A stretch of DNA of 64,000 nt, the filler included, from Lama guanicoe (taxonomy: Eukaryota): assembly GCA_013239625.1 (NCBI GenBank). It is 80 parts of 80 records of this genome, joined end to end, with 100 filler letters (N's around TTAATTAATTAA, not from the genome) between each part and the next. Parts side by side here need not be neighbours in the genome. Positions count along the whole stretch, not along the records: positions 11,480 to 12,125 come from PNXV01022272.1; 79 more parts are not named here. One strand, given 5' to 3'. The notes below the pieces were generated by a model. The model did no database searches and had not been told where the DNA came from. It was given only the letters and a program-made list of their open reading frames with translations. The position numbers and the translations under genes are program-made. Below, piece after piece: positions 1,016 through 63,833 of the stretch. The first letter of the stretch is position 1, and each line of letters opens with the position of its first letter.

Positions 1016-1745
1016 ATTTCTGTTCCCCTGTCTTCACAGTCATTCACGCATCCCTTTGCATTATGTAGTCTGCAAAGGACTGAATTTTAGCCCTGATATT
1101 ATCACATTCATTGAGTTTTCTGATATTTTTTGGCTCGTCTTTAGACTTTCTCTTCCCCTTTTCTGGTCTTCTGCCTTTGGTGATTCTGAGACACTGTTGT
1201 TCTTCAGTGTTTTCTTGACCACCATTTTCAACACTTGGTCTGGATTGCGTTTTGCAGTCTAGTTGTTTGAAAGCTTATCTTTTGGGCCTTCAATATCTTT
1301 GGAACTGAAAATGGTACTTCCTGTTTCTTTTACTGTACTTCTTCANNNNNNNNNNNNNNNNNNNNNNNNNNNNNNNNNNNNNNNNNNNNNNNNNNNNNNN
1401 NNNNNNNNNNNNNNNNNNNNNNNNNNNNNNNNNNNNNNNNNNNNNNNNNNNNNNNNNNNNNNNNNNNNNNNNNNNNNNNNNNNNNNNNNNNNNNNNNNNN
1501 NNNNNNNNNNNNNNNNNNNNNNNNNNNNNNNNNNNNNNNNNNNNNNNNNNNNNNNNNNNNNNNNNNNNNNNNNNNNNNNNNNNNNNNNNNNNNNNNNNNN
1601 TTCTGAAAGTGCGCAGGACACTTCCTCTTGTGGAAATGAAGCTTCTAAAGGTTCTCAGCTCTGCATTCTGTTCTATGTCATTTTGGAGTGTTTCCCAAAC
1701 AGCAAACTGAGAGTGGGCTTGTGCTTTGTAGTGCCACGGGAATGT
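1016..1745 (-). pseudogene. Unidentified multicopy coding-like family, copy 1 (N gap 1346-1600)
   Basis: Reverse complement of 1016-1345 aligns by eye to ~45505-45835. Reverse complement of 1601-1745 aligns to ~11715-11860 and ~45210-45260. Purine-rich sense strand; all three frames examined carry stops. Confidence 0.45.
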
Positions 1746-5031: not shown

Positions 5032-5777
5032 GTCACAGGTGTTCCCTGTGCGGGGAAGTCCGAGAAATAACTTCCCTGACTTTGGGGAGTCAGCCTCTGA
5101 CCTGGGACTTCCTGCAAACCCCCCTAGCATTCCCTGGCACAGAGACATTAGGAAAACCCTCAGGGGAGACGAGCTTAGTCATTCCATTACAACAAACGCG
5201 CTGCCGACCGTTGGTGGAACCTCCCCACGCTCAGGTTTCCAGAAACTTTGTCAGTGCGGGGGGAGCTCGAGAGACAACTCCACGCAGCCCTTTTCAGTCA
5301 CAGGTGTTCCCTGTTNNNNNNNNNNNNNNNNNNNNNNNNNNNNNNNNNNNNNNNNNNNNNNNNNNNNNNNNNNNCCTGGGACTTTCTGCAAACCCCCCTG
5401 GCATTCCCTGGCACAGAGACATTAGGAAAACCCTCAGGGGAGACGAGCTTAGGCATTCCGTTTGAAAACACGCGCTGTCGACCGATGGTGGAACCTCCCC
5501 ACGCTCAGGATTCCGGAATCTTTTCAGTGCGGTGGGAGCTCAAGAGACAACTCCACGCAGCCCTCTTCAGTCACAGGTGTTCACTGTTTGGGGAAGTCCG
5601 AGAAATACCTTCCCTGACCTTGGGGAGGCAGCCTCTGTCCCTGGGAATTCCTGCAAACCCCCCTAGCATTCCCTGGCACAGAGACATTAGAAAAAACCTC
5701 AGGGGAGACAAGCTTAGGCATTCCGTTGCAACCCACGCGGTGCCGACCGTTGGTGGAACCTCCCCACGCTCAGGATT
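5032..5777 (+). repeat. GC-rich ~265-267-bp satellite, A-type monomers
   Basis: cctggga...gcattccctggcacagagacattagg recurs at 5375 and 5640 (265 bp); same family as five other scaffolds. Confidence 0.92.
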
Positions 5778-5877: not shown

Positions 5878-6265
5878 ATGGGGAGGTACAAGCTCCAGCT
5901 CGGTTTTACAGTGAAAACGGCAGACAATTCAAACCAGCCATAGGAAACAGACTGAGAAACCAGAGTAAGTGTTTCTCCTGCAACCCGTTCCTTTTGAGCT
6001 GGATGAACGAACGTCTCTCCACATGTTCAGTTCTGAGAGATAAGTGTGTGTGAAGGCCATTTTTGAACATGCTTGAAGGGAACAAAAAGTTTCCTTTCAG
6101 TTCCTAAATCTAGTACATACATATATATGGGGAGGTTAAGGTACAAGCTCCGGTTTTACAGTGAAAACGGCAGGCACTTCAAACCGGCACTAGGAAACAG
6201 ACTGAGAAACCAGAGTAAGGGTTTCTCCTGCAACCCGTTCCCTTTGTGCTGGATGAACGAAACGA
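5878..6265 (+). repeat. ~249-250-bp satellite
   Basis: taggaaacagactgagaaaccagagtaag at 5941 and 6191. Confidence 0.9.
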
Positions 6266-7219: not shown

Positions 7220-8104
7220 AAGAAACATATGGATTTTGTGAGAATAGAAATTTATTAAAAGTAAAAACCTAAGAAAAACAGTAAAATTTGGAGGATAAAT
7301 CATACAATATTAAACAACCTGTGGATTGCTGTAAAAATCAAAGGAAATATATATAAAGAAAAAGGACAACAAAAACAAAGTCCATGGGGTTTAGCAAAAG
7401 CAGAATTAATAGGGATACTTATAGCAAAATAATCCCACTTATAAAAATAAGAAACATCTCTCTCATAACATAATCTTACAAACAAAAGATGTAGCAAAAT
7501 AAGAAATAAATTGTTAGTAGAAGGAAAGAAATCTGAAAGGTCAGAACATAAATAATTAAAATGAAGATTAAAAATAGAAACATTCAATCAAACTAAATAA
7601 TGGCTTTTGAAAGATAAATAAAATAGATAAACGTTAACCAGACNNNNNNNNNNNNNNNNNNNNNNNNNNNNNNNNNNNNNNNNNNNNNNATAATCTTACA
7701 AACAAAAGATGTAGCAAAATAAGAAATAAATTGTTAGTAGAAGGAAAGAAATCTGAAAGGTCAGAACATAAATAATTAAAATGAAGATTAAAAATAGAAA
7801 CATTCAATCAAACTAAATAATGGCTTTTGAAAGATAAATAAAATAGATAAACGTTAACCAGACACGTGAGAAAAAAAGAGTACAGATTAATATGCTCAGA
7901 AATAAATGAGAAGCTACAGTTTATATCAAAGAAATACAAAGCATCATAAGAAGATACAGGAATGAGCAACAGAAAATATGAACAGATTACCACTAACGAA
8001 ATTGAATAAGCAATTAAACAAATTTCCCATGAAACAAATTTCCAGGCCTAGATAGCTTCACAGGTGAATTCTGCCAAACATTTTGAGAAGAGCTATCACC
8101 TATT
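7220..8104 (+). mobile_element. Decayed LINE-1 ORF2 fragment starting at an inversion junction
   Basis: L1 motifs tttgaaagataaataaaatagataaac and ccaggcctagatagcttcacaggtgaattctgccaaacattt; paralog of ~38056-38564. Confidence 0.85.
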
Positions 8105-8307
8105 NNNNNNNNNNNNNNNNNNNNNNNNNNNNNNNNNNNNNNNNNNNNTTAATTAATTAANNNNNNNNNNNNNNNNNNNNNNNNNNNNNNNNNNNNNNNN
8201 NNNNTGGAAAGAAGGAGAAAGTACACAGAAGAATGAGAAAGACCATTGTAGCTCAGGGAATAGACCTCTAACCAGACCCTGATGCCTCCCACTCTTTTTC
8301 TGGACAG

Positions 8308-8583
8308 AAGTGAATGGACAACAGTTAAAGCAAATTCCTGAATTCGTGTCCCTACAAGAGGGAGAGAACTTCACCACATACTGCAATACCTCCAGCACTA
8401 TAGACAGCTTACAGTGGTATAAGCAGCAGCCTGGGGGACGTCCAGTCTTGTTGATGTTATTAACTAAGGGTGGAGACGTGAAGACGCAGGGGAGATTGAC
8501 AGCTCGGTTTGGAGAGACCAGAAAGGACAGCTTCCTACCGGCCGCCCAGACTGCAGATGTAGGAACCTACTTCTGCGCAGAGG
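8308..8583 (+). CDS. TRAV25: T-cell receptor alpha variable gene segment, V exon (TRAV25-like); leader exon not in this scaffold
   Basis: Pyrimidine tract and AG acceptor at 8306-8307 (phase 1). Translation VNGQQLKQIP...FTTYCNTS...QWYKQQPGG...DVGTYFCA has both conserved Cys and the Trp, and follows the TRAV25 pattern (GQQVMQIP, EDFTTYCNSS, DVGTYFCA). An RSS follows directly. Confidence 0.88.
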
Positions 8584-8622
8584 CACAGCGCTCTCAAAGC
8601 ACCTGCTGCCTGTCCCCAAAGC
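8584..8622 (+). promoter_or_regulatory. V(D)J recombination signal sequence, 23-bp spacer
   Basis: Heptamer CACAGCG (8584-8590), 23-nt spacer ctctcaaagcacctgctgcctgt, nonamer CCCCAAAGC (8614-8622) keeping the central AAA. Confidence 0.85.
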
Positions 8623-8714
8623 TTGCTGTGGGGCTCCAGGAGCAGCCCCTCCTCAGCTGTCCTCAGGGCAGGAGACAGAGAAAGTTGAAGTCACAATGTC
8701 TATGAAGAAATGAA

Positions 8715-8898
8715 TTTTTAACTGAAAAAAAAGTTCTGAGGCTCATATGGTGTTACTGGATAATTCTACCAAAGATTGAGGAAAAAATACCGCTAATTCT
8801 ACACAATTTCTTCCAGAAAATAAAAAGAGAATAGTAATTCCTCACCAATTTTTTGAAGCTCGTATTCCCCTGATACCAAAATCAGAGAAAGACCTTAC

Positions 8899-8929
<31 letters not shown>

Positions 8930-9009
8930 CAGAAACAAAAGCCAAACAAAATACTACAGAGAACTATCCTTCATTAATATAGAAACAAAGTTGGTTAACA
9001 AAATATTAG
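8715..9009 (+). mobile_element. Old LINE-1 ORF2 fragment with (CAAAA)n tract
   Basis: aattctaccaaa, ttcttccagaaaat, ccctgataccaaaatcagag and actacaga motifs from the region upstream of the L1 RT domain. Confidence 0.75.
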
Positions 9010-9109: not shown

Positions 9110-9796
9110 AGAAAGAACAACACAAAATATAGAATATATAAACGAGAATATAGAAGCCGGAATTTAGATAATGGAATGCAGAACACAGAATTTATAATAT
9201 AGAATACAGAATACTGAATTTAGAATATTTAATATAGAACGTAGAACAGAGAATTCAGACTATAGAATACAGACTACTGAATATAGAATTTAGAATACAG
9301 AATATAGAACACAGAACATAGAACATAGAAAATGAATGCAGAATATAGAATGCAGAACACAATATAAATAATATAAAATAGAGAATATAGAACTTAAATT
9401 TAGTAATGGAATGCCGAACACAGAATTAAAATCTAGAATACGGAATAATGAATTTAGGATTTAGAATATATAATGAAGAACACAGAATATACAATATAGA
9501 ATACGGAATGCAGAATATAGAATGCAGAACACAATATAAATAATATAAAATAGAGAATATAGAACTTAAATTTAGTAATGGAATGCCGAACACAGAATTA
9601 AAATCTAGAATACGGAATAATGAATTTAGGATTTAGAATATATAATGAAGAACACAGAATATACAATATAGAATACGGAATGCAGAATATAGTATGTAGA
9701 ATATAGAATGAAAAACACAAAATGTTCAATAGAATAGAGAATATAAGACACAGAATTTAGAACATGGATTGCAGAACACAGAATTTAGAATATAGA
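9110..9796 (-). repeat. AT-rich heptamer satellite (reverse orientation) with an exact 172-bp tandem duplication
   Basis: TAGAATA/CAGAATT units; gaatgcagaatatag at 9334, 9506 and 9678. Confidence 0.9.
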
Positions 9797-11479: not shown

Positions 11480-12125
11480 AAGACAAGGAAGAGTGGTCAA
11501 AGGCCAAAGCATGAGAAGATGAAGCATTAACTTCAGCATAATTTCCCAAAAGCAGATGCTACAGTTTGATTGGAACCGGCACGGTACAACAACGAGGACA
11601 CTAAGGTCGGACTGCCGTATCATTCCAGAAGACCCTGATGTATAACATCCATTGGAATGTTCCCACTGGTGTTTCTGTAGTCAGAGAAGCTCTGGGAAGA
11701 ACTGGTTTCATTGGGACATTCCAGTGGCACTACAAAGCACAAGCGCACTCTCAGTTTGTAGTTTTGGAAACACTCCAAAATGAAAAGAGCAGAATGCAGA
11801 GCTGAGAACCTTTAGAAGATTCATTTCCACCAGAGGAAGTGTGCTGTGCACTTTCAGAATTGTGAGATAAGCATAATCAAAGTGAGGTTATGCTAATCGA
11901 AATAATATGGGGTGTTCATCACAACAAAGGCAACAAAAGCAATTGGAGATATACTAGACAACAAACAAAGAAACAGGATATAGCATCAATGTCTAGGAGA
12001 AACTGTCCTCACAGGAATCCCATGGAATTGCATAGATCCAAGATTCAAATGTTTTCATTTAACATAGCCCTAGAATTCTACATTAGATACCGGATATTAC
12101 CTGACCAGTAGAGGTGAAGAAGCAA
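11480..12125 (+). pseudogene. Unidentified multicopy coding-like family, copy 2
   Basis: Overlaps copy 1 (1601-1745, reverse complement) and copy 3 (45210-45510). One frame reads for long stretches with scattered stops (NIHWNVPTG...EPLEDSFPPEEV...NWRYTRQQ...ILPDQ). Confidence 0.45.
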
Positions 12126-13265: not shown

Positions 13266-14653
13266 CTACATTCTGTATTCTGTATTCAATATTCTGCATT
13301 CCGTATTCCATATTGTATATTCTGTGAATTACATTCTATATTCTAAATCCTATATTCAGTATTCCGTATTCTATATTCTGTACTTTGGGTTCTACATTCT
13401 ATATTCTAAATTCTATATTCAGTAGTCTGTATTCTATATTCCAAATTCTGTGTTCTGCATTACATGTTCTAAATTCTGGCTTCTATATTCTCTATTCTCT
13501 ATTCTATATTCTGTGTTCTACATTCTATGTTCTAAATTGTATTTTCAGTTTTCTGTATTCTATATTATTAATTCTGTGTTCTGCATTCCATTTCAAAATT
13601 CTGGTTTGTATATTCCCTATTCTATATTCTATACTTTGTGTTCTTCTTTCTATATTCTACATACTNNNNNNNNNNNNNNNNNNNNNNNNNNNNNNNNNNN
13701 NNNNNNNNNTTAATTAATTAANNNNNNNNNNNNNNNNNNNNNNNNNNNNNNNNNNNNNNNNNNNNGGGATCTATAATCTATATTCTATATTCTATACTCT
13801 GTGTTCTACATTCTTTAATCTAAATATTATATTCAGCTTTCTGTATTCTATATTATAAATTCTGTGTTTTACATTCCATATTCTAAATTCTATATTCAGT
13901 ATTATTTAATATATATTCTAAATTCTGTGTTCTGCATTCCATGTTCTAAATCCTGGGATCTATAATCTATATTCTATATTCTATACTCTGTGTTCTACAT
14001 TCTTTAATCTAAATATTATATTCAGCTTTCTGTATTCTATATTATAAATTCTGTGTTTTACATTCCATATTCTAAATTCTATATTCAGTATTCCGTATGC
14101 TATATTCTAAATTATGTGTTCTGTATTCCATGTTCTAAATTCTGGGTTCTATATTCTTTTTTCCATATTCTAAATTCTGTGTTCTACATTCTATATTCTA
14201 AATTCTATATTCAGTATTCCGTATGCTATATTCTAAATTATGTGTTCTGTATTCCATGTTCTAAATTCTGGGATCTATAAAATATATTCTATATTCTATA
14301 TTCTGTGTTCTACACTCTATATTCTAAATACTATATTCAGATATCTGTATTCCATATTGTAAATTCTGTGTTCTACATTCCATGTTCTAAATTCTGGGTC
14401 CTATATTCTCTATTCTATATTCTATGATTTGTGTTCTTCATTCTATATACTATATTCTGCATTCCGTAGTCTATATTCTATACTATATTTTGTACATTCT
14501 ATATTCTAAATTCTATATTCAGTATTCTGTATTCTATATTCTAAATTCTGTTTTATGCATTCCATGATCTAAATTTTGTCTTCTCTATTCTCTACTCTAC
14601 ATTATATATTTTTTGTACTCCATTCTATATTCTACATTCTTTATTCTCTATTC
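13266..14653 (+). repeat. AT-rich heptamer satellite (two scaffolds: 13266-13665 and 13766-14653)
   Basis: 7-bp units; near-exact internal repeats offset by 189 bp (13766/13955) and 126 bp (14091/14217). Confidence 0.92.
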
Positions 14654-15870: not shown

Positions 15871-16308
15871 TCTATTTCCTAAATTCTGTGTTCTGCATTC
15901 CTGTTTATAAATTCTATATGCTGTATTCTGCATTCTTTATTCTTAATTCTGTGTTCTGCCTTCTATGTTCTAAATTCTATATTTAGTATTCTGTATACTA
16001 TATTCTAAATTCTGTGTTCTGAATTCCATTTTGTAAATTCTGGGTTCTCTAATCTGTTTTCCATATTCTTTTTTGTGTTCTACATTCTATATTCTGGATT
16101 CAATATTCTGCATTCCGTATTCTACATACCATATTCTGTGTTCTAATTCTATGTTCTCAATTCGATATTCAGTATTCTGTATTTTATATTCTAAATTCTG
16201 TGATTTCTATATACCATGTTCTAAATCCTGGGTTCTATATTCTCTATTCAATATTCTACATTTTGTGTTCATCATTCTATATTCTATATTCTATATTCTC
16301 CATCCGTA
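15871..16308 (+). repeat. AT-rich heptamer satellite
   Basis: Same NNTTCTR units as 1846-2339. Confidence 0.9.
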
Positions 16309-16408: not shown

Positions 16409-17297
16409 AGAAAGCCTTCCTTCACCTAGCTTGTTGAGAACACAAAGTTTCTTTTCAGTTGTTAAATACACTACATACTTATATATGAGGAGGTACTTGC
16501 TCGAACACATTTTTATGGAGAAAACTGCAGAAACTTCAAACCAGAACTTGGAAACAGGCTGAGAAACAAGAGGAAGTGTTTCTACTGCAACCAGTTTCAA
16601 TTGTGCAAGATGAACGAACATCTCTCCACATGCTCAGTACTGAGAGACAATTGTGTGTGAAAGCCGTCCGTCAAATAACTTGTTTGGAACACAAAGTTTA
16701 TTTTCAGTTGGAAACTACAAAACATAATTAAATATGAGGAGGTACTAGCTCCACCTCGGTTTTGCAGTGAGAACTGCAGGAACTTCAAACGGACACTAGG
16801 AAACAGGCTGAGAAACCAGAGTAAGTGTTTTTCATGCAACCCGTTCCCATTGTGCTAGATGAAAGAACGTCTCTCCACATGCTCAGTTTCGAGAGATAAT
16901 TGGGTGTGAAGCTTCCCTTCACCTAGCTAGATGGGAACTGAAAGTTTCTTTTCATTTGGAAATTACATTATATACATATATATGGGGAGGTACTGGCTCC
17001 AATTCGGTTTTACAGTGAAAACAGCAGGAACGTCATAACAGCACTAGGAAACAGATTGAGAATCCATTGTAAGTGTTTCTCCTGCAAACCATTCCCTTTG
17101 GGCAAGAAGAACGAACATCTCTCCACATGCTCATTTATGAGAGATAAGTGTATGTGAAAGCCGTCCTTCACAAAGAGTTTCCAACACTTTCCCTTTGTGC
17201 TAGAAGAACGAAAGTCTCTCCACATGCTCAGTTCTGAGAGATAAGTGTGTGTGAAAGCCATCCTTCACCTATCTTGTTGGGAACACAAAGCAAAGCT
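16409..17297 (+). repeat. ~249-bp satellite, diverged monomers
   Basis: ggaaacag(g/a)(c/t)tgag at 16550, 16799 and 17047 (249 and 248 bp apart); truncated monomer near 17170-17190. Confidence 0.9.
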
Positions 17298-19949: not shown

Positions 19950-20885
19950 TGTGGTTTTGTGTCCTCTCTGTTTTTGATACGATGTATCACAATTGATTCA
20001 TTGATTTACATATGTCAAACCATCCTTGTGATCCTGGGATGAACCTAACCCGACCATGGTGCATAATCTTTTTTACATGCTGTTGGATTCTGTTTGTTAA
20101 GAATTTCTTAAAGACTTTTACATCTATGTTTATCAATGATATTGGCCTATAGTATTCTTTTGAGTTAGTGTCTTTATCTGGTTTTGGTATCAGGTTATTT
20201 TTGGCCTTACGGTGTGAGTTTGGGGGTACTCTCTTCATATCAATCTTTTGGAAGAGTTTGAGGAGGACTGGTATTGATTTTTCTTTGTATGTTGGGACAA
20301 ATTCTCCAGTGAATCTATTTGGGTCTGAATTTTTGTTTTCAGAGATTTTTATTTTGTTGATAATCATAATCTGTTTCTGGTGATCTGTCTGTTCATATGG
20401 TCAATTTCTTCCCAATGCAATTATGGTGGGCTATTTCCAGAAACTTCTCCATGACTTCTTGGTTATCCAGTTTGTTTCAATACAATTGCTCATGGTATTC
20501 CCTTATGATATTATACAAATTTGTTGTACTCTTTGTAGTTTCTCCACTTACATTTCTTATGTTATTTGTGTTCTCTCTCTTTTCGTGTTGGTGAGCCTGT
20601 CCAGAGATTTGTCAATTATGTTTACTTTTTCAAAAATGAGTTTGATTAATTTTCTCTATTTTTAATCTCTTTTTCACTTCTTTCTTCCTTGATCTTTATT
20701 ATTTCCCACTTTCTGGATACTTTTGGTTTTGTTTGCTCTTCTATTCATGAATGCTCTTCTATTCATGATTAGTTTGCAAAGAACATTAGATTATTTATTT
20801 GAAATTGCTCTTCTACATTAAGGAGAACCTTGTCATTATGAACTTCCCTCTTAAGCCATCTTTAACTGTATTCCATATACTTTGT
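19950..20885 (-). mobile_element. LINE-1 ORF2 fragment (disabled)
   Basis: ORF 19987-20367(-) reads FTGEF...[10 protein letters not shown]...LIPKPDKD...[12 protein letters not shown]...PGSQGWF, i.e. the L1 ORF2 Z/RT region. Confidence 0.95.
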
Positions 20886-21675: not shown

Positions 21676-22560
21676 ATCCTAGCGCTGCCGAATGTTGGTG
21701 GATCCTCCCCACCCTCAGGATTCAAGAAACATTGTCTCTGCTTGGGGGAGCTCGAGAGTCAACTCCACGCAGCTCTCTTCCGTCACAGGTGTTCCCTGCT
21801 AGGGGGAAGTCCGAGAAATACCTTCCCTACCCTTGGGGAGGCAACCGCTGACACTGGACATGCCAGCGCAGACCCCCAGCATTTCCTGGCAGACAGAATT
21901 GGAAAACACTCAGGGGAGACTAGCTTAGGCATTCCGTTAAAACCAACGCGCTGCCGACCGTTGGTGGGACCTCCCCCGCTCAGGATTCCGGAACCATAAT
22001 CAGTGCGTGGGGGAGCTCGAGAGACAATTCCACGCATCTCTCTTCAGTCACAGGTGTTCCATGTTATGGTGAAGTCTGAGAAATACCTTCCGTGACTTTG
22101 GGGAGGCAGCCTCTATCACTGGGAATTCCTGAAACCCCCGCTAATATTCCCTGGCAGTGAGATATTAGGAAAAAACTCAGGGCAGACGAGCTTAGGCATT
22201 CCGTTAGAACCCACGCGGTGCCGAACGTTGGTGGAACCTCCCCACGCTCAGGATTCCGGAACCATAATCAGTACGTGGGCGAGCTCGAGACACAACTGCA
22301 CGCAGCTCTCTTCAGTCTCAGGTGTTCCCTGTTCGGGGGAAGTCCGAGAAAAACCTTCTCAAACCTTGGGATGGCTGCTGCTGACCCTGGGCATTCCAGC
22401 GCAGAATCCTAGCATTCCCTGGAAGACAGTACTTAGGAAAACCCTCAGGGGAGACGAGCTTAGGCAATCGTTTAGAACGCACGTGCTGCTGACCTTTGGT
22501 GGAACCTCCCTACGCTCAGGATTCCGGAAACATAATCAGTGCGTGGGGGATCTCGAGATA
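21676..22560 (+). repeat. GC-rich ~267-bp satellite, heterogeneous monomers
   Basis: More than three tandem monomers sharing ccacgcagctctcttcagtcacaggtgttccctg. Confidence 0.92.
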
Positions 22561-23332: not shown

Positions 23333-24519
23333 GTCACTGATGCCTCAAAATGAATGTGAAACTTCATTATCCATTATGGAAGGAGGGCTCATTTTGGACT
23401 CACTTCTAATGGTGAAAAGAGAGACTTTAGTTTTATTAAAGATAATTTTAGTCATCATTCACCCACCAGAGAATGTATTTTATGTAGGCCTCAGTCACCC
23501 TAGGGCTNNNNNNNNNNNNNNNNNNNNNNNNNNNNNNNNNNNNNNNNNNNNTTAATTAATTAANNNNNNNNNNNNNNNNNNNNNNNNNNNNNNNNNNNNN
23601 NNNNNNNATCACCTTCAAACCCAAGTCTCCTGTCCGGTTGAGAGTGTGCGTCCAAGAAAAAAAGAGTTTCACCTTTGCTCCTCCATCACCAGGGGTCAGA
23701 CCCTGCACTGGTTTCCATTCCCTGCTTTGCCTTCTCCTGCTTCCAGGTGTTCTGAGGCCTCACCCTGACTTTGGAAGTTACAGACCTCTCTTCGGCAAGT
23801 GTCCTGTGCCAAGGGCTGGGTGAGTGGATGTTTCCATTGCTGTGTACATGGGAGCGAGTATGCACTGCTCCTCTGCCAACTGGGCATCGACTAATCAACA
23901 CTTTCCAGATATATTTCACAGAAATGTGATATTTGTTTAGCTCTTTTTTCTATACAGCCTTGGTGGGAGGTATTAACCGAAGATTCCAGTTTTGACGTTG
24001 TTTTGATATCTCATTTGCAGGCTTTAAATAGTTTAATAGAATTGATNNNNNNNNNNNNNNNNNNNNNNNNNNNNNNNNNNNNNNNNNNNNTTAATTAATT
24101 AANNNNNNNNNNNNNNNNNNNNNNNNNNNNNNNNNNNNNNNNNNNNTTTTAGGCTACAGTCTGTTCCCTTTAAAAAATGGGGTTGGGAAGAAGAAAGAAA
24201 AAGATCAGAAAATTCTGTCCGTTTTAGTCCCGACTGCCTGAAGCAAAGTATTCCTCTAGAAGTGAATGTGCTCTCCGAGACCCTTGGCAATCACCACCCG
24301 GGCAGAAATTTGCTTGGTCCCACAGTGTCATCTAGGGGATGACTGGTGAAATGACAGCCTCCTAATCCTTTTTCTGCTGATATTTATTATCTGCAAAAAA
24401 CACACATTCAGAGTCACAGGGCACAATTTCTACCTTCTCTTCTCAAATCAGCTGGCCTAAGCACCCATAAATGGGAATCCTGTTTTAGGATAGAAGAATG
24501 AAATGATACAATCTGGCAT

Positions 24520-25691: not shown

Positions 25692-26548
25692 AACACTCAG
25701 GGGAGACTAAGTTAGGCATTCCGTTAGAACCCACGCGCTGACGAATATTGGTGGAACCTCCCGACACTCAGTTTTCCGTAAAAATTGTCAGTGCGTGGGG
25801 GAGCACGAGAGACAACTCCACGCAGCTCTCTTCAGGCTCAGGTGTTCCCTTTTAGGATGAAGTTCCAGAAATACCTTCCCTGACCTTGGGGAGGCAGCCT
25901 CACTAACTGGGAATACCTGAAACCCCCGCTAAAATTCCTTGGCAGAGAGATATTAGGAAAACCATCAGGGCAGAGGAACTTAGGCATTCCGTTAGAACCC
26001 ACGCGCTACCGAAAGTTGGTGGAACCTCCACACGCTCAGGATTCCGGAACAATAATCAGTGCGTGGGGGATCTCCAGAGACATCTCCACGCAGCTCTCTT
26101 CAGTCACAGGTGTTCTCTGTTCGGGGGAAGTCCGAGAAATACGTTCTCAAACCTTGGGCTGGCTGCTGCTGACGCTGGGCATTCCAGCACAGATCCCTAG
26201 CATTCACTGGCAGCCAGAACTTAGGAAAACCTTCAGGGGAGACGAGCTTAAGCAATCCTTTAGAACGCACGCGCTGCCGACTCTTGGTATAAGCTCCCCA
26301 TGCTCAGGATTCCGGAAACATTGTTTGTGCGTGGGGGAGCTCGAGAGACATCTCCACGCAGCTCTCTTCAGTCACAGGTGTTCCCTGTTCGGGGAGGAAA
26401 TTCAAAGAAATACTTTCCTTGATCTTGGGGGCAGCCGATGACACTGGGAATTGCAACGCAGATCTCAAGCATTCCCTGGAAGCCAGATATTAGGAAAAGC
26501 ATCAGGGGAGACGAGCATAGGCAATCCTTTAGAACGCACGCGCTGCCG
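25692..26548 (+). repeat. GC-rich ~267-bp satellite, heterogeneous monomers
   Basis: About three tandem monomers. Confidence 0.92.
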
Positions 26549-26648
26549 NNNNNNNNNNNNNNNNNNNNNNNNNNNNNNNNNNNNNNNNNNNNTTAATTAA
26601 TTAANNNNNNNNNNNNNNNNNNNNNNNNNNNNNNNNNNNNNNNNNNNN

Positions 26649-27499
26649 ACTGAAGAGAGCTGCGTGGAGTTGTCTCTCGAGCTCCCCCACACATTGAAAA
26701 ATGTTTCGGAAACCTGAGCGACGAGCGGTTCCACCAATGGTCGGCAGCACGTGGGTTCTAAGGGAATGCCTAAGCTCGTCACCCCTGAGAGTTTTCCTAA
26801 TGTCTCTGTGCCAGGGAACACTAGGGTGGTTTACAGGAATTCCCAGAAACAGAGGCTGCCTCCCTAAGTTCAGGGAAGATATTTCTCGGATTTCCCCCAA
26901 ACCGGGAAAGTGACTGAAGAGAGCTGCGTGGAGTTGTCTCTCGAGCTCCCCCATGCACTGATTATGGTTCCGGAATCCTGAGCATGGGAAAGTTCCACCA
27001 ACTGTCGGCAGTGCGTGGGTTTTAACGGATTGCATAAGCTCGACTCCCCTGAGGGATTTCCTAATGTCTGGCTGCAAGGTAATTGTAGGGATCTGCGCTG
27101 CAATTCCCAGGGTCAGCAGATACCACCCCAAGGTTAAGGAATGTATTTCTCTGACTTCCCCCGTATAGGGAACACCTGTGACTAAAGAGAGCTGCGTGGA
27201 GTTGTCTCTCGGGCTCCCCCACGCACTGACAATTTTTCCGGAATCCTGAGAGTCGGGGGGTTCCACCAACGATCGGCAGCGCGTGAGTTCTGACGGATTT
27301 ACTAAGCTCGTCTCCCATGAGGGTTTTGCTAAGTTCTGGCTACCAGTGAATGCTAGGGATCTGCGCTGGAATGCCCAGGTCCAGTAGCAGCCAGCTCAAG
27401 GTTTGAGAAGATAATTCTCGGAATTCCCCCGAACAGGGAACACGTGTGACTGAAGAGAGATACGTGGAGATGTCTCTCGACCTCCCCCACGCACAAACA
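26649..27499 (-). repeat. GC-rich ~267-bp satellite, reverse orientation
   Basis: Repeated actgaagagagctgcgtggagttgtctctcg, the reverse complement of the satellite core. Confidence 0.92.
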
Positions 27500-28095: not shown

Positions 28096-29621
28096 AACCG
28101 GCACTAGGAAACAGACCTAGAAACCAGAGTAAGTGTTTTTCCTGCAACCAGTTTCCTTTGTGCTGGATGAAAGTACGACTCTCCACATGCTCAGTTCTGA
28201 GAGATAAGTGTGTGTGAAAGCCGTCCTTCACCTAGCTTGAAGGGAACACAAAGTTCCTATCTGTTGCAAACTCNNNNNNNNNNNNNNNNNNNNNNNNNNN
28301 NNNNNNNNNNNNNNNNNNNNNNNNNNNNNNNNNNNNNNNNNNNNNNNNNNNNNNNNNNNNNNNNNNNNNNNNNNNNNNNNNNNNNNNNNNNNNNNNNNNN
28401 NNNNNNNNNNNNNNNNNNNNCTAGCTTGAAGGGAACACAAAGTTTCTTTTCAGTTGCAAAATCCACTCCATACATATATATGGGGAGGTCCAAGCTCCAA
28501 CTCGATTTTACAGTGAAAACGGCAGGCACTTCAAACCGGCACTAGGAAACAGACTGAGAAACCAGAGACAGTGTTTCTCCTGCAACCCGTTCCTTTTTTG
28601 CTGGATGAACGAACGTCTATTCACATGCTCATTTCTGAGAGATATGTGTGTGTGAAAGCCGTCCTTCAACTAGCTTGAAGGGAACACAAACTTTCTTTTC
28701 AGTTGCAAAGTCCACTCCACACATATATATGTGGAGATACAAGCTCCAACACGGTTTTACAGTGAAAACGGCAGGCACTTCAAACCGGCACTCAGAAACA
28801 GACTGAGAAACCAGAGTAAGGGTTTCTCCTGCAACCCGTTCCCTTTGTGCTGGATGAACGAACGTCTCTCCACATGCTCAGTTCTGAGAGATAAGTGTGT
28901 GTGAAAGCCGTCCTTCACCTAGCTTGAAGGGAACACAAAGTTTCTTTTCAGTTGCAAACTCCACTACATACATATATATGGGGTGGTCCAAGCTCCAACT
29001 CGGTTTTACAGTGAAATCGGCAGGCACTTGAGACCGGCACTAGGAAACACACTGAGAAACTAGAGTAAGGCTTTCTCCTGCAACCCGTTCCCTTTGTGCN
29101 NNNNNNNNNNNNNNNNNNNNNNNNNNNNNNNNNNNNNNNNNNNTTAATTAATTAANNNNNNNNNNNNNNNNNNNNNNNNNNNNNNNNNNNNNNNNNNNNC
29201 CACTCCATACATATATAAAGGGAGGTGCAAGCTCCAACTCGGTATTACAGTGAAAAACGAAGGAAATTCAAACCGGCACTAGGAAACAGACTGAGAACCC
29301 AGAGTAAGTGTTTCTCCTGCATCCCGTTCCTTTGTGCTGAATGAACGAGCGTCTCTCCACATGCTCAGTTCTGAGAGATAAATGTGTGTGAAAGTCGTCC
29401 TTCGCCTAGGTTGAAGGGAACACAAAGTTACATTTCNNNNNNNNNNNNNNNNNNNNNNNNNNNNNNNNNNNNNNNNNNNNNNNNNNNNNNNNNNNNNNNN
29501 NNNNNNNNNNNNNNNNNNNAACTTCAAACCTAGGAAACAGATTGAGAAGCCAGAATAAGTGTTCCTTCTGCCACCCGTTCCCTTTGTGCTGAATGAACAA
29601 ACGTCTCTCCACATGCTCAGT
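28096..29621 (+). repeat. ~249-bp satellite (two scaffolds: 28096-29099 and 29200-29621)
   Basis: ctagcttgaagggaacacaaa at 28421, 28670 and 28919, an exact 249-bp period. Confidence 0.93.
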
Positions 29622-30342: not shown

Positions 30343-31919
30343 CCTCTGTCACTGGGATTTCCTGCAAACCCCCCTAACATTCCCTGGCACAAAGAAATTA
30401 GGAAAGCCCTCAGGGGAGATGAGCTCAGGCATTCCGTTGGAACCCATGCGCTGCCGGCCATTGGTGGAACCTCCCCACGCTCAGGATTCCGGAACCATTG
30501 TCAGTGCGTGGGGAGCTCGAGAGACAACTCCACGCAGCTCTCTTCAGTCACAGGTGTTCCCTGTCCTGGGAAGTCCGAGAAATAGTTTCCCTTACCTTGG
30601 GGAGGCAGCCTCTGTCACTGGGATTGCCTGCAAACACCCCTAGCATTCCCTGTCACAGAAACATTAGGAAAAAACCCAGGGGCGTCGAGCAAAGGCATTC
30701 CGTAAGAACCCACGCGCTGCCGACCTTTGGTGGAACCTCCCCACCCTCAGGATTCCGGAACCATTGTCAGTGCGTGGGGAGCTCGAGAGACAACTCCACG
30801 CAGCTCTCTTCAGTCACAGGTGTTCCCTGTTAGGGGGAATTCTGGGAAATTCCTTCCCTGAACTTGGGGAGGCAGCCTCTGACACAGGGATTGCCTGCAA
30901 ACCCCCCTAGNNNNNNNNNNNNNNNNNNNNNNNNNNNNNNNNNNNNNNNNNNNNNNNNNNNNNNNNNNNNNNNNNNNNNNNNNNNNNNNNNNNNNNNNNN
31001 NNNNNNNNNNNNNNNNNNNNNNNNNNNNNNNNNNNNNNNNNNNNNNNNNNNNNNNNNNNNNNNNNNNNNNNNNNNNNNNNNNNNNNNNNNNNNNNNNNNN
31101 NNNNNNNNNNNNNNNNNNNNNNNNNNNNNNNNNNNNNNNNNNNNNNNNNNNNNNNNNNNNNNNNNNNNNNNNNNNNNNNNNNNNNNNNNNNNNNNNNNNN
31201 NNNNNNNNNNNNNNNNNNNNNNNNNNNNNNNNNNNNNNNNNNNNNNNNNNNNNNNNNNNNNNNNNNNNNNNNNNNNNNNNNNNNNNNNNNNNNNNNNNNN
31301 NNNNNNNNNNNNNNNNNNNNNNNNNNNNNNNNNNNNNNNNNNNNNNNNNNNNNNNNNNNNNNNNNNNNNNNNNNNNNNNNNNNNNNNNNNNNNNNNNNNN
31401 NNNNNNNNNNNNNNNNNNNNNNNNNNNNNNNNNNNNNNNNNNNNNNNNNNNNNNNNNNNNNNNNNNNNNNNNNNNNNNNNNNNNNNNNNNNNNNNNNNNN
31501 NNNNNNNNNNNNNNNNNNNNNNNNNNNNNNNNNNNNNNNNNNNNNNNNNNNNNNNNNNNNNNNNNNNNNNNNNNNNNNNNNNNNNNNNNNNNNNNNNNNN
31601 NNNNNNNNNNNNNNNNNNNNNNNNNNNNNNNNNNNNNNNNNNNNNNNNNNNNNNNNNNNNNNNNNNNNNNNNNNNNNNNNNNNNNNNNNNNNNNNNNNNN
31701 NNNNNNNNNNNNNNNNNGAACCCACGCGCTGCCGACCGTTGGTGGAACCTCCCCACGCTCAGGATTCCGGAACCATTGTCAGTGCGTGGGGAGATCGTGA
31801 GACAACTCCACGCAGCTCTCTTAAGTCACAGGTGTTCCCTGTTAGGGAGAATTCTGAGAAATTCCTTCCATGACCTTGGGGAGGCGGCCTCTGTCACTGG
31901 GATTGCTTGCAAACACCCC
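30343..31919 (+). repeat. GC-rich ~267-bp satellite, A-type array (N gap 30911-31717)
   Basis: cctctg(t/a)cac at 30343, 30609 and 30876 (266 and 267 bp apart). Confidence 0.93.
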
Positions 31920-45209: not shown

Positions 45210-45858
45210 ACCTTTAGAAGCTTCATTTCCACAAGAGGAAGTGTCCTGTGCACTTTCCTCTTTGCGAGATAAGCGTAATCAAAATGAGGTTATGCTAATC
45301 AAAATACTACGTGGTGTTCATCACAAGTAAGGCAACACCAGCAATTGGAGATATACCAGACAACACACACAGGAACAGGACATGGCATCAATGTCTAGGA
45401 GAAATTGTCCTCACAGAATCCCCATATAATTGCGTAGAAGCAATGGTCTAAAATTTTCACTTAACAAAGCATTACATTAGAGATATTACCTGACCAGGAG
45501 ATATAAAGAAGTACAGTAAAAGAAATAGGAAGTACCATTTTCAGTTCCAAAGAGATTGAAGGCCCAAAAGATAAGCTTTCAAACAACTAGACTGCAAAAC
45601 GCTATCCAGAGCAAGTATTGAAAGCGGAGGTTAGGGAATCACTGAAGAACTACAGTGTCTCAGAATCACAAAAGGCAGAATACCAGAAAAGGGGAAGAGA
45701 AAGTCTAACGATGAGCCAAATAATATCAGAACACTCAATGGATGAGATAATATCAGGGCTAAACACCAGTCCTAAGCAGACTAGATAATGCAGAGGGACC
45801 CGTGATTGACTGTGAAGACAGGGGAACCGAAATCCCTCGGTCAGAAGCAGACATAGGA
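45210..45858 (+). pseudogene. Unidentified multicopy coding-like family, copy 3
   Basis: Bridges copy 2 (11808-12125) and copy 1 (1016-1345, reverse complement); several stops in the frames examined. Confidence 0.45.
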
Positions 45859-46611
45859 NNNNNNNNNNNNNNNNNNNNNNNNNNNNNNNNNNNNNNNNNN
45901 NNNNNNNNNNNNNNNNNNNNNNNNNNNNNNNNNNNNNNNNNNNNNNNNNNNNNNNNNNNNNNNNNNNNNNNNNNNNNNNNNNNNNNNNNNNNNNNNNNNN
46001 NNNNNNNNNNNNNNNNNNNNNNNNNNNNNNNNNNNNNNNNNNNNNNNNNNNNNNNNNNNNNNNNNNNNNNNNNNNNNNNNNNNNNNNNNNNNNNNNNNNN
46101 NNNNNNNNNNNNNNNNNNNNNNNNNNNNNNNNNNNNNNNNNNNNNNNNNNNNNNNNNNNNNNNNNNNNNNNNNNNNNNNNNNNNNNNNNNNNNNNNNNNN
46201 NNNNNNNNNNNNNNNNNNNNNNNNNNNNNNNNNNNNNNNNNNNNNNNNNNNNNNNNNNNNNNNNNNNNNNNNNNNNNNNNNNNNNNNNNNNNNNNNNNNN
46301 NNNNNNNNNNNNNNNNNNNNNNNNNNNNNNNNNNNNNNNNNNNNNNNNNNNNNNNNNNNNNNNNNNNNNNNNNNNNNNNNNNAAAAAAAAGAAACGAATT
46401 CAGCAGTTCGATTCTTATCCTAAAAGGCAGGATGAAAATTCTCCCCTTAATAGAAAAGTAGTAAGATGAAATGGAAAGAAGAAAACCATTATTGGAAATG
46501 CAAGAGGAGAANNNNNNNNNNNNNNNNNNNNNNNNNNNNNNNNNNNNNNNNNNNNTTAATTAATTAANNNNNNNNNNNNNNNNNNNNNNNNNNNNNNNNN
46601 NNNNNNNNNNN

Positions 46612-58251: not shown

Positions 58252-58773
58252 CGCTCAGGATTCCGGAACCATAGTCATTGTGTGGGGGAGCTAGAGAGAC
58301 CTCTCCACGCAGCTCTCTTCAGTCACAGGTGTCCCCTGCTCGGGGAAGTCCGAGAAATACCTTCCCTGACCTTGGGGAGGCAGCCTCTGTCACTGGGATT
58401 TCCTGCAACCACCCCTAGCATTCCCTGGCATAGAGAAATGAGGAAAACCCTCAGGGGGACGAGCAGTGGCAGTCCGTTAGAACCCACGCGCTGCCGACCG
58501 TTGGTGGAACCTCCCCACGCTCAGGANNNNNNNNNNNNNNNNNNNNNNNNNNNNNNNNNNNNNNNNNNNNNNNNNNNNNNNNNNNNNNNNNNNNNNNNNN
58601 NNNNNNNNNNNNNNNNNNNNNNNNNNNNNNNNNNNNNNNNNNNNNNNNNNNNNNNNNNNNNNNNNNNNNNTTTCCTGCAACCAAGCATTCCCTGGCACAG
58701 AGATATGAGGAAAATTCTCAGGGTAGAAGAGCACAGGCATTCCGTTAGAACCCACGCGCTGCCGACCTTTGGT
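58252..58773 (+). repeat. GC-rich ~267-bp satellite, A-type (gapped)
   Basis: Same core sequence as 30343-31919. Confidence 0.92.
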
Positions 58774-63350: not shown

Positions 63351-63833
63351 ATGGCAATAAACACACATTTATCATTAATTACTGTAAATGTTAATGGAGC
63401 AAATGCTCCAGTCAAAAGACATAGGGTGGCAGACTGGATAATAAAGCAAGAACCTTCAATATGCTGCCTACAAGAGACCCACTTTAGGGAGAAGGACACA
63501 TATAGATTGAGAGTGAAAGGATGGAAAAGGATATTCCATGCAAATGGAAAAGCCAAAAAAGCAGGTGTTGCAGTACTGATTTCAGACAAAAAGTCTTTAA
63601 AACAAAGGCCATAAAGAAAGATAAAGAAGGACATTTTATAATGATTGAAGGAGTGATACAAGATGAGGATAGCACACTCGTTAATACATATGCACCAAAT
63701 TGAGAAGCACCTAAATATATAAAATAATTACTAACAGATATAGAGGGGGATAGTGATGGGAATCTAATAATATGTGGAGATTTGAACACTGCATTAACAT
63801 CACTAGACAGATCTTCTAGACAGAAAATAAACA
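63351..63833 (+). pseudogene. LINE-1 ORF2 N-terminal AP-endonuclease domain, frameshifted
   Basis: LSLITVNVNG...ICCLQETH...KGWKRIFHANG...KAGVAVLISDK, frameshift near 63592, then FKTKAIKKDKEGHFIMI...NTYAPN and a stop, then GDLNT. Confidence 0.96.

Follow-up and report, generated by a model that had tools for sequence, protein, structure and literature searches.

Copies of one sequence on several small scaffolds of Lama guanicoe (assembly GCA_013239625.1) raise the question of whether a disabled gene has been amplified in this genome or whether the copies belong to repetitive DNA of a different kind. An earlier note, made from the sequence by eye, had favored the former and described an amplified pseudogene or retrogene with a possible relationship to TOPORS or TOPORSL.

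Layout of the family in the window

The window, i.e., the whole stretch of 64,000 nucleotides that was analyzed, consists of 80 small unplaced scaffolds joined by 79 N44-TTAATTAATTAA-N44 linkers. Self-BLAST of the window connected three pieces: positions 1016-1343 align with 45833-45506 (90.2% identity over 328 nt, E 4e-126), 1601-1745 with 11859-11716 (91.7% over 145 nt, E 8e-53) and 11808-12122 with 45210-45511 (81.6% over 315 nt, E 3e-83). Copy 2 (11480..12125, plus strand) is read here as a divergent piece of a satellite monomer on the basis of self-BLAST, copy alignment and depth in sequencing runs. According to self-BLAST and alignment, there is overlap between copy 3 (45210..45858, plus strand) and the 3' half of copy 2, beyond which copy 3 continues for about 345 nt. 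Copy 1 resides on the minus strand in two parts, the first (1601..1745) with 91.7% identity to copy 2 and 97.9% to copy 3 over 48 nt, the second (1016..1345) with 90.2% identity to copy 3. Copy 1 is colinear with the others, as its gap of 255 N is close to the 242 nt expected from copies 2 and 3. Tiled together, the three copies span ~990 nt, with 11480 at one end and the equivalent of 45858 at the other. Self-BLAST thus bears out the earlier claim that three pieces overlap and tile to about 1 kb, and the pieces are paralogs, as had also been proposed; identities of 82-92% rule out duplicate assembly as their source. On the scaffold of copy 3, 524 N further downstream, a stretch of 129 nt (46383..46511, plus strand) is probably more of the same monomer, as judged from scaffold linkage; no second copy of it was found within the window.

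The three scaffolds counted earlier are confirmed, but a fourth had been missed. This piece (23608..24046, minus strand) overlaps none of copies 1-3 and is read as an upstream part of the monomer, based on three primer sites and an identity of 62 nt with VpaSat08-5290 that are described below. The four pieces together account for 2209 of the 51,969 non-linker bases of the window (4.3%). Tandem Repeats Finder listed no tandem array in the scaffolds of copies 1-3, all of which are shorter than 1 kb; on short scaffolds, such programs miss multi-kilobase satellites.

Probable relationship to a catalogued camelid satellite

VpaSat08-5290, VpaSat09-5280, VpaSat11-5308 and VpaSat12-5280 constitute one major tandem satellite family with a monomer of ~5.3 kb (PMC13751797). 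By FISH, its blocks sit on the short arms of 16-20 alpaca chromosome pairs, and PCR amplification was positive in all camelids examined (PMC13751797). Monomers of the family are available as GenBank QB059672-QB059676, with a published AT content of 54-56% (PMC13751797). Our comparison used the eight family primers and, for each monomer, its initial 400 letters.

When the window was scanned with the eight primers, three sites were encountered on the minus strand of scaffold 23608-24046: VpaSat11-F matched 19/20 at 23790, VpaSat09-R 17/20 at 23843 and VpaSat12-F 17/20 at 23634. In addition, inspection by eye revealed that 23780-23841 comprises 62 nt identical to the start of the VpaSat08-5290 monomer. 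The fourth primer led to copy 2, where the window's best site for the VpaSat12-5280 reverse primer is located (11602..11621, plus strand, 15/20), oriented as a reverse site following the forward primer should be; a match of 15/20 was reached in 9 of 1000 shuffles, corresponding to p ~0.07 after accounting for eight primers. A contig from run X16 that continues copy 2 matches this primer 19/20 in the homologous stretch (by eye), part of the stretch is also seen in a contig from run X2, and the majority letters of the runs are those of the primer at 11611 and 11616. The VpaSat12 forward site on scaffold 23608 and the reverse site in copy 2 face each other in amplifiable order. If the 734-bp VpaSat12 amplicon applies here, ~546 unseen bases should lie between the two pieces, and no sequence bridging them was found.

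In total, four of the eight family primers have matches in the window (15-19/20) with consistent orientation. Sites for both VpaSat08 primers, VpaSat09-F and VpaSat11-R did not exceed 14/20 in the window, and three motifs from the starts of the VpaSat09, 11 and 12 monomers were absent from it. Copies 1-3 are tied to the VpaSat family by one 20-nt site and by geometry. If the satellite reading applies, all four pieces fall within ~2 kb of the 5.3-kb unit. The likeness to VpaSat08/09/11/12 lies in the four of eight primer sites, in the 62-nt identity and in very high abundance across four organism labels (see below). The AT share of scaffold 23608 (54.2%) also compares well with the published 54-56%, whereas copies 1-3 are more AT-rich (59-61%) and represent divergent monomers.

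Each of the four pieces is thus very probably a fragment of a different monomer of the ~5.3-kb VpaSat08/09/11/12 tandem satellite, and the family is most likely one that is already catalogued (November 2026). The earlier statement that the sequence resembles no satellite does not hold in view of the primer sites and the 62-nt identity, while the heterochromatic setting suggested at the same time finds support in the short-arm FISH signals, provided that the family assignment is correct (PMC13751797).

Tandem layout, monomer size and chromosomal position are taken from the published work (PMC13751797). The satellite would act as bulk heterochromatin from which no protein is made. Its arrays may grow and spread between short arms via unequal exchange and gene conversion. 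This step draws on general knowledge of satellites and on the discussion in the satellite paper. A short-read assembler would collapse the common monomers and leave divergent ones as sub-kilobase scaffolds, and it is the persistence of the latter that would let pieces of the family recur in the window. As a satellite fragment, the family is ordinary; the main text of PMC13751797 does not address the origin of the ~5.3-kb monomer and discusses neither a coding origin nor transposon content. More generally, multi-kilobase satellites in fragmented assemblies can mimic "unknown coding-like families".

Abundance in sequencing runs

Part of copy 2 is contained in 20 of 24 sequencing runs, no single run having more than 27% of the words sampled from it. 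For four of the 24 runs, one for each of four coded organism labels, contigs were aligned to copy 2 at 80% likeness. These runs yielded 1373, 2853, 659 and 1242 aligning contigs, which covered 30 of 30 bins. The summed depth peaked at 0.47, 1.47, 0.34 and 0.81 million, values that are not equivalent to copy numbers. Among the 32 contig records listed (there are 6101 further ones), several longer contigs have depths of 21-47 and a few are lower, one 127-nt contig reaches a depth of 1116, and none spans the whole copy 2 stretch. With depth divided by ~40 and overlap of up to 31-fold, we roughly infer 10^3 to 10^4 copies of the family. The high copy number predicted earlier is therefore corroborated by 659-2,853 contigs per run in all four runs. 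At many sites of copy 2, nearly all of the run depth carries another letter, often that of copy 1 or copy 3. Since run depth mostly disagrees with its letters, copy 2 is a divergent member of the family. In the small run X1 (59 million letters), depth was very high and the 5' end of 11480-12125 was relatively stronger than in the three large runs; this profile is not taken as a sign of RNA. None of the runs listed as containing copy 2 is an RNA run, which speaks neither for nor against expression.

Coding-like appearance and substitution pattern

The coding-like character ascribed to the family proved weaker than stated, both by purine rank and by stop counts compared with shuffled sequences. 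Among the 76 stretches of at least 300 nt in the window, the copies rank 9th, 19th and 25th in purine share. Stop counts in the best frame were not low when set against 2,000 base shuffles (130/2000 for copy 2, 1208/2000 for copy 3 and 298/2000 for copy 1b). The stop in AACAACTAG was found in both copies 1 and 3, in agreement with the earlier claim that these copies have stops in common. In 17 of 18 frame-by-pair comparisons, stops were common to both copies, the exception spanning 46 codons. Any frame had therefore already been broken in the ancestors of the copies. No excess of synonymous changes was apparent in any of the six frames for copies 2 and 3 (5-8 synonymous vs 21-22 nonsynonymous single changes) or in any frame for copies 3 and 1b (3-9 vs 17-21). 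Coding constraint between the copies is absent over the ~1 kb compared.

In three family pairs, transitions and transversions amounted to 34:54. Among the 267- and 249-bp satellites of the window, four pairs gave 108:190, and the nine other two-copy pairs gave 194:198, with ratios ranging from 0.69 to 1.56; one self-aligned pair of the 63-bp satellite was left out. These are plain counts with small numbers, and they lend weak support to a substitution pattern of the family like that of the window's short satellites. As a separate observation, transversions were the more frequent class in each of the four satellite pairs (transition/transversion ratio 0.46-0.85) and in five of the nine other two-copy pairs, and CpG transitions were few. 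For neutral change in mammals, the ratio of transitions to transversions is near 2, and the ratios in the window are low by comparison. The low transition share across the pairs may reflect a real mutation bias or assembly error.

Alternative origins of the family

In principle, the satellite assignment is compatible with a gene as the source of the monomer: A satellite monomer may contain a long-dead, captured coding exon of TOPORS/TOPORSL or another fast-evolving gene, the frame of which would have decayed before or during spread. In its specific form, this would mean that ~2 kb of the monomer represent a decayed exon of the TOPORS/TOPORSL family that multiplied to thousands of copies on 16-20 chromosome pairs before the split of camels and llamas. 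We regard such an origin as unlikely, be it from TOPORS/TOPORSL or from another gene. If true, it would provide a clear example of bulk heterochromatin derived from a coding exon, possibly with a small number of units still open or transcribed.

Several observations speak for it. One frame of scaffold 23608 (minus strand) has just two stops in 146 codons (43/2000 shuffles, uncorrected), and a plus-strand frame in the overlap of copies 2 and 3 has only one common stop in 98 codons. One base that is present in copy 1 and in many run contigs is missing from copy 2 at 11783, and with this base the motifs noticed earlier on either side share a phase there. In their order, these motifs may resemble the C-terminal half of TOPORS. 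Amplified gene fragments do occur in camelid repeat blocks (PMC13751797).

On the other hand, protein-level searches yielded no credible match, and the earlier idea of an amplified pseudogene, retrogene or TOPORS relative is left unsupported, with the proviso that the libraries may lack TOPORS/TOPORSL. Within the reach of these libraries, the outcome named in the earlier note as refuting the idea, a lack of significant protein matches, was the one obtained. Pfam gave no matches at E<=1 when copies 2 and 3 (12 frames) and scaffold 23608 (six frames) were searched. Three word-index searches, which covered longer proteins (376-2000, 217-2000 and 192-2000 aa), remained blank after 145, 973 and 78 candidates had been scored. 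When the frame of scaffold 23608 was compared with 1.84 billion representative proteins using phmmer, two unnamed tandem-repeat proteins were returned; both are artefacts whose scores were summed over 10-11 repeat stretches. Two PDB searches gave no matches, and Atlas provided nothing usable for two stop-free stretches (best score 0.83). No RING or Topors-type family was detected in 18 read-through frames or in 143 stop-free stretches, with ~3.3 kb of the monomer unseen. Outside the satellites, the window has 150 stop-free stretches of at least 62 aa; 143 of these entered the Pfam scan, and those excluded comprise five on a simple-repeat scaffold. A match of the family stretch 1064-1258 (minus strand) to DUF4645 (E 0.004, 17.1 bits vs a cut-off of 27) is attributable to chance among 143 queries. 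The synonymous and nonsynonymous counts for copies 2 and 3 given above argue in the same direction as the blank searches, and a search of Rfam had no matches. The resemblance to TOPORS/TOPORSL consists of short motifs noticed by eye; it is set against poor motif spacing, no database match and no RING or Topors-type domain in the stretches scanned. A link between TOPORS and camelid repeats was not found in the literature as judged by titles or abstract starts, and TOPORS is not mentioned in the main text of the satellite paper (PMC13751797). TOPORSL is named as a horse gene (PMC11350783).

A gene-derived monomer would resemble the class of human macrosatellites such as RS447/USP17 (4.7 kb) and D4Z4/DUX4 (3.3 kb), which encode a known protein in an open frame and have ~1-150 copies (PMC5687341). 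The kilobase-scale tandem unit is the common feature. The family described here differs by its common stops, by the lack of a protein match and by an apparently far higher abundance. An open frame under purifying selection, as in RS447 and D4Z4, was not found over the ~1 kb compared.

Even less probable is an origin of the family as, or from, the internal part of an unrecognized transposable element or endogenous retrovirus. While such an element would account for high copy number and the lack of introns, no transposon or retroviral Pfam domains were found in the 18 frames, and the same library did find L1-type RVT_1 and endonuclease domains elsewhere in the window. IMG/VR contained neither an exact motif match nor a relative confirmed by tblastn, which is weak evidence. 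In the Pfam and IMG/VR searches of the family, no gag, pol, env, ORF1, ORF2 or transposase domains were recognized. Host-derived copies in metagenomes were likewise considered and rejected, since one motif had no matches and the 17 found for another did not extend beyond 18-26 nt at the seed, as expected by chance.

The alpaca genome offers a further model in the pseudogene-rich blocks of chromosomes 11, 17 and 36, which carry NEK10-, ATF5-, FMN2- and ABHD17A-like sequences (PMC13751797). They resemble the present family in being multi-copy sequences of repeat-rich camelid compartments. Yet they consist of 5-19 recognizable gene fragments per family, are dispersed and are absent or much reduced in camels (PMC13751797), whereas our family lacks a recognizable gene and matches a satellite that can be amplified from all camelids. 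A pseudogene that was amplified through dispersed segmental duplications, with tens to a hundred copies and no relationship to VpaSat, is highly improbable: although NEK10-, ATF5- and FMN2-like blocks do exist in alpaca (PMC13751797) and a tandem layout is not visible in the window, it would leave unexplained the 19/20 match of a family contig to the primer, the contig counts of hundreds to thousands and the missing protein matches.

Further features of the window

Shorter satellites occupy several scaffolds of the window. One with a unit of 265-268 bp is found at 5032-5777, 21676-22560, 25692-27499, 30343-31919 and 58252-58773, and part of the VpaSat16 start looks related to it by eye. Another with a 249-bp unit resides at 5878-6265, 16409-17297 and 28096-29621. 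A third, AT-rich satellite has a 7-bp unit with higher periods of 21 and 63 bp (1846-2339, 9110-9796, 13266-14653 and 15871-16308). At 7470-7643 and 7690-7863, a sequence of 174 nt is repeated with 100% identity around a gap of 46 N, probably an unmerged contig overlap. Remnants of L1-type reverse transcriptase and endonuclease are present at 19990-20400 (minus strand) and 63351-63611 (plus strand; Pfam RVT_1 E 4e-6, Exo_endo_phos E 1e-8). Finally, scaffold 8205-9009 (plus strand) contains an immunoglobulin V-set stretch at about 8300-8625 (Pfam V-set E 8e-7), which ends in YFCAE followed by a CACAGCG heptamer-like signal and which resembles a V segment of T-cell receptor alpha/delta with a probable truncation close to the 3' end.
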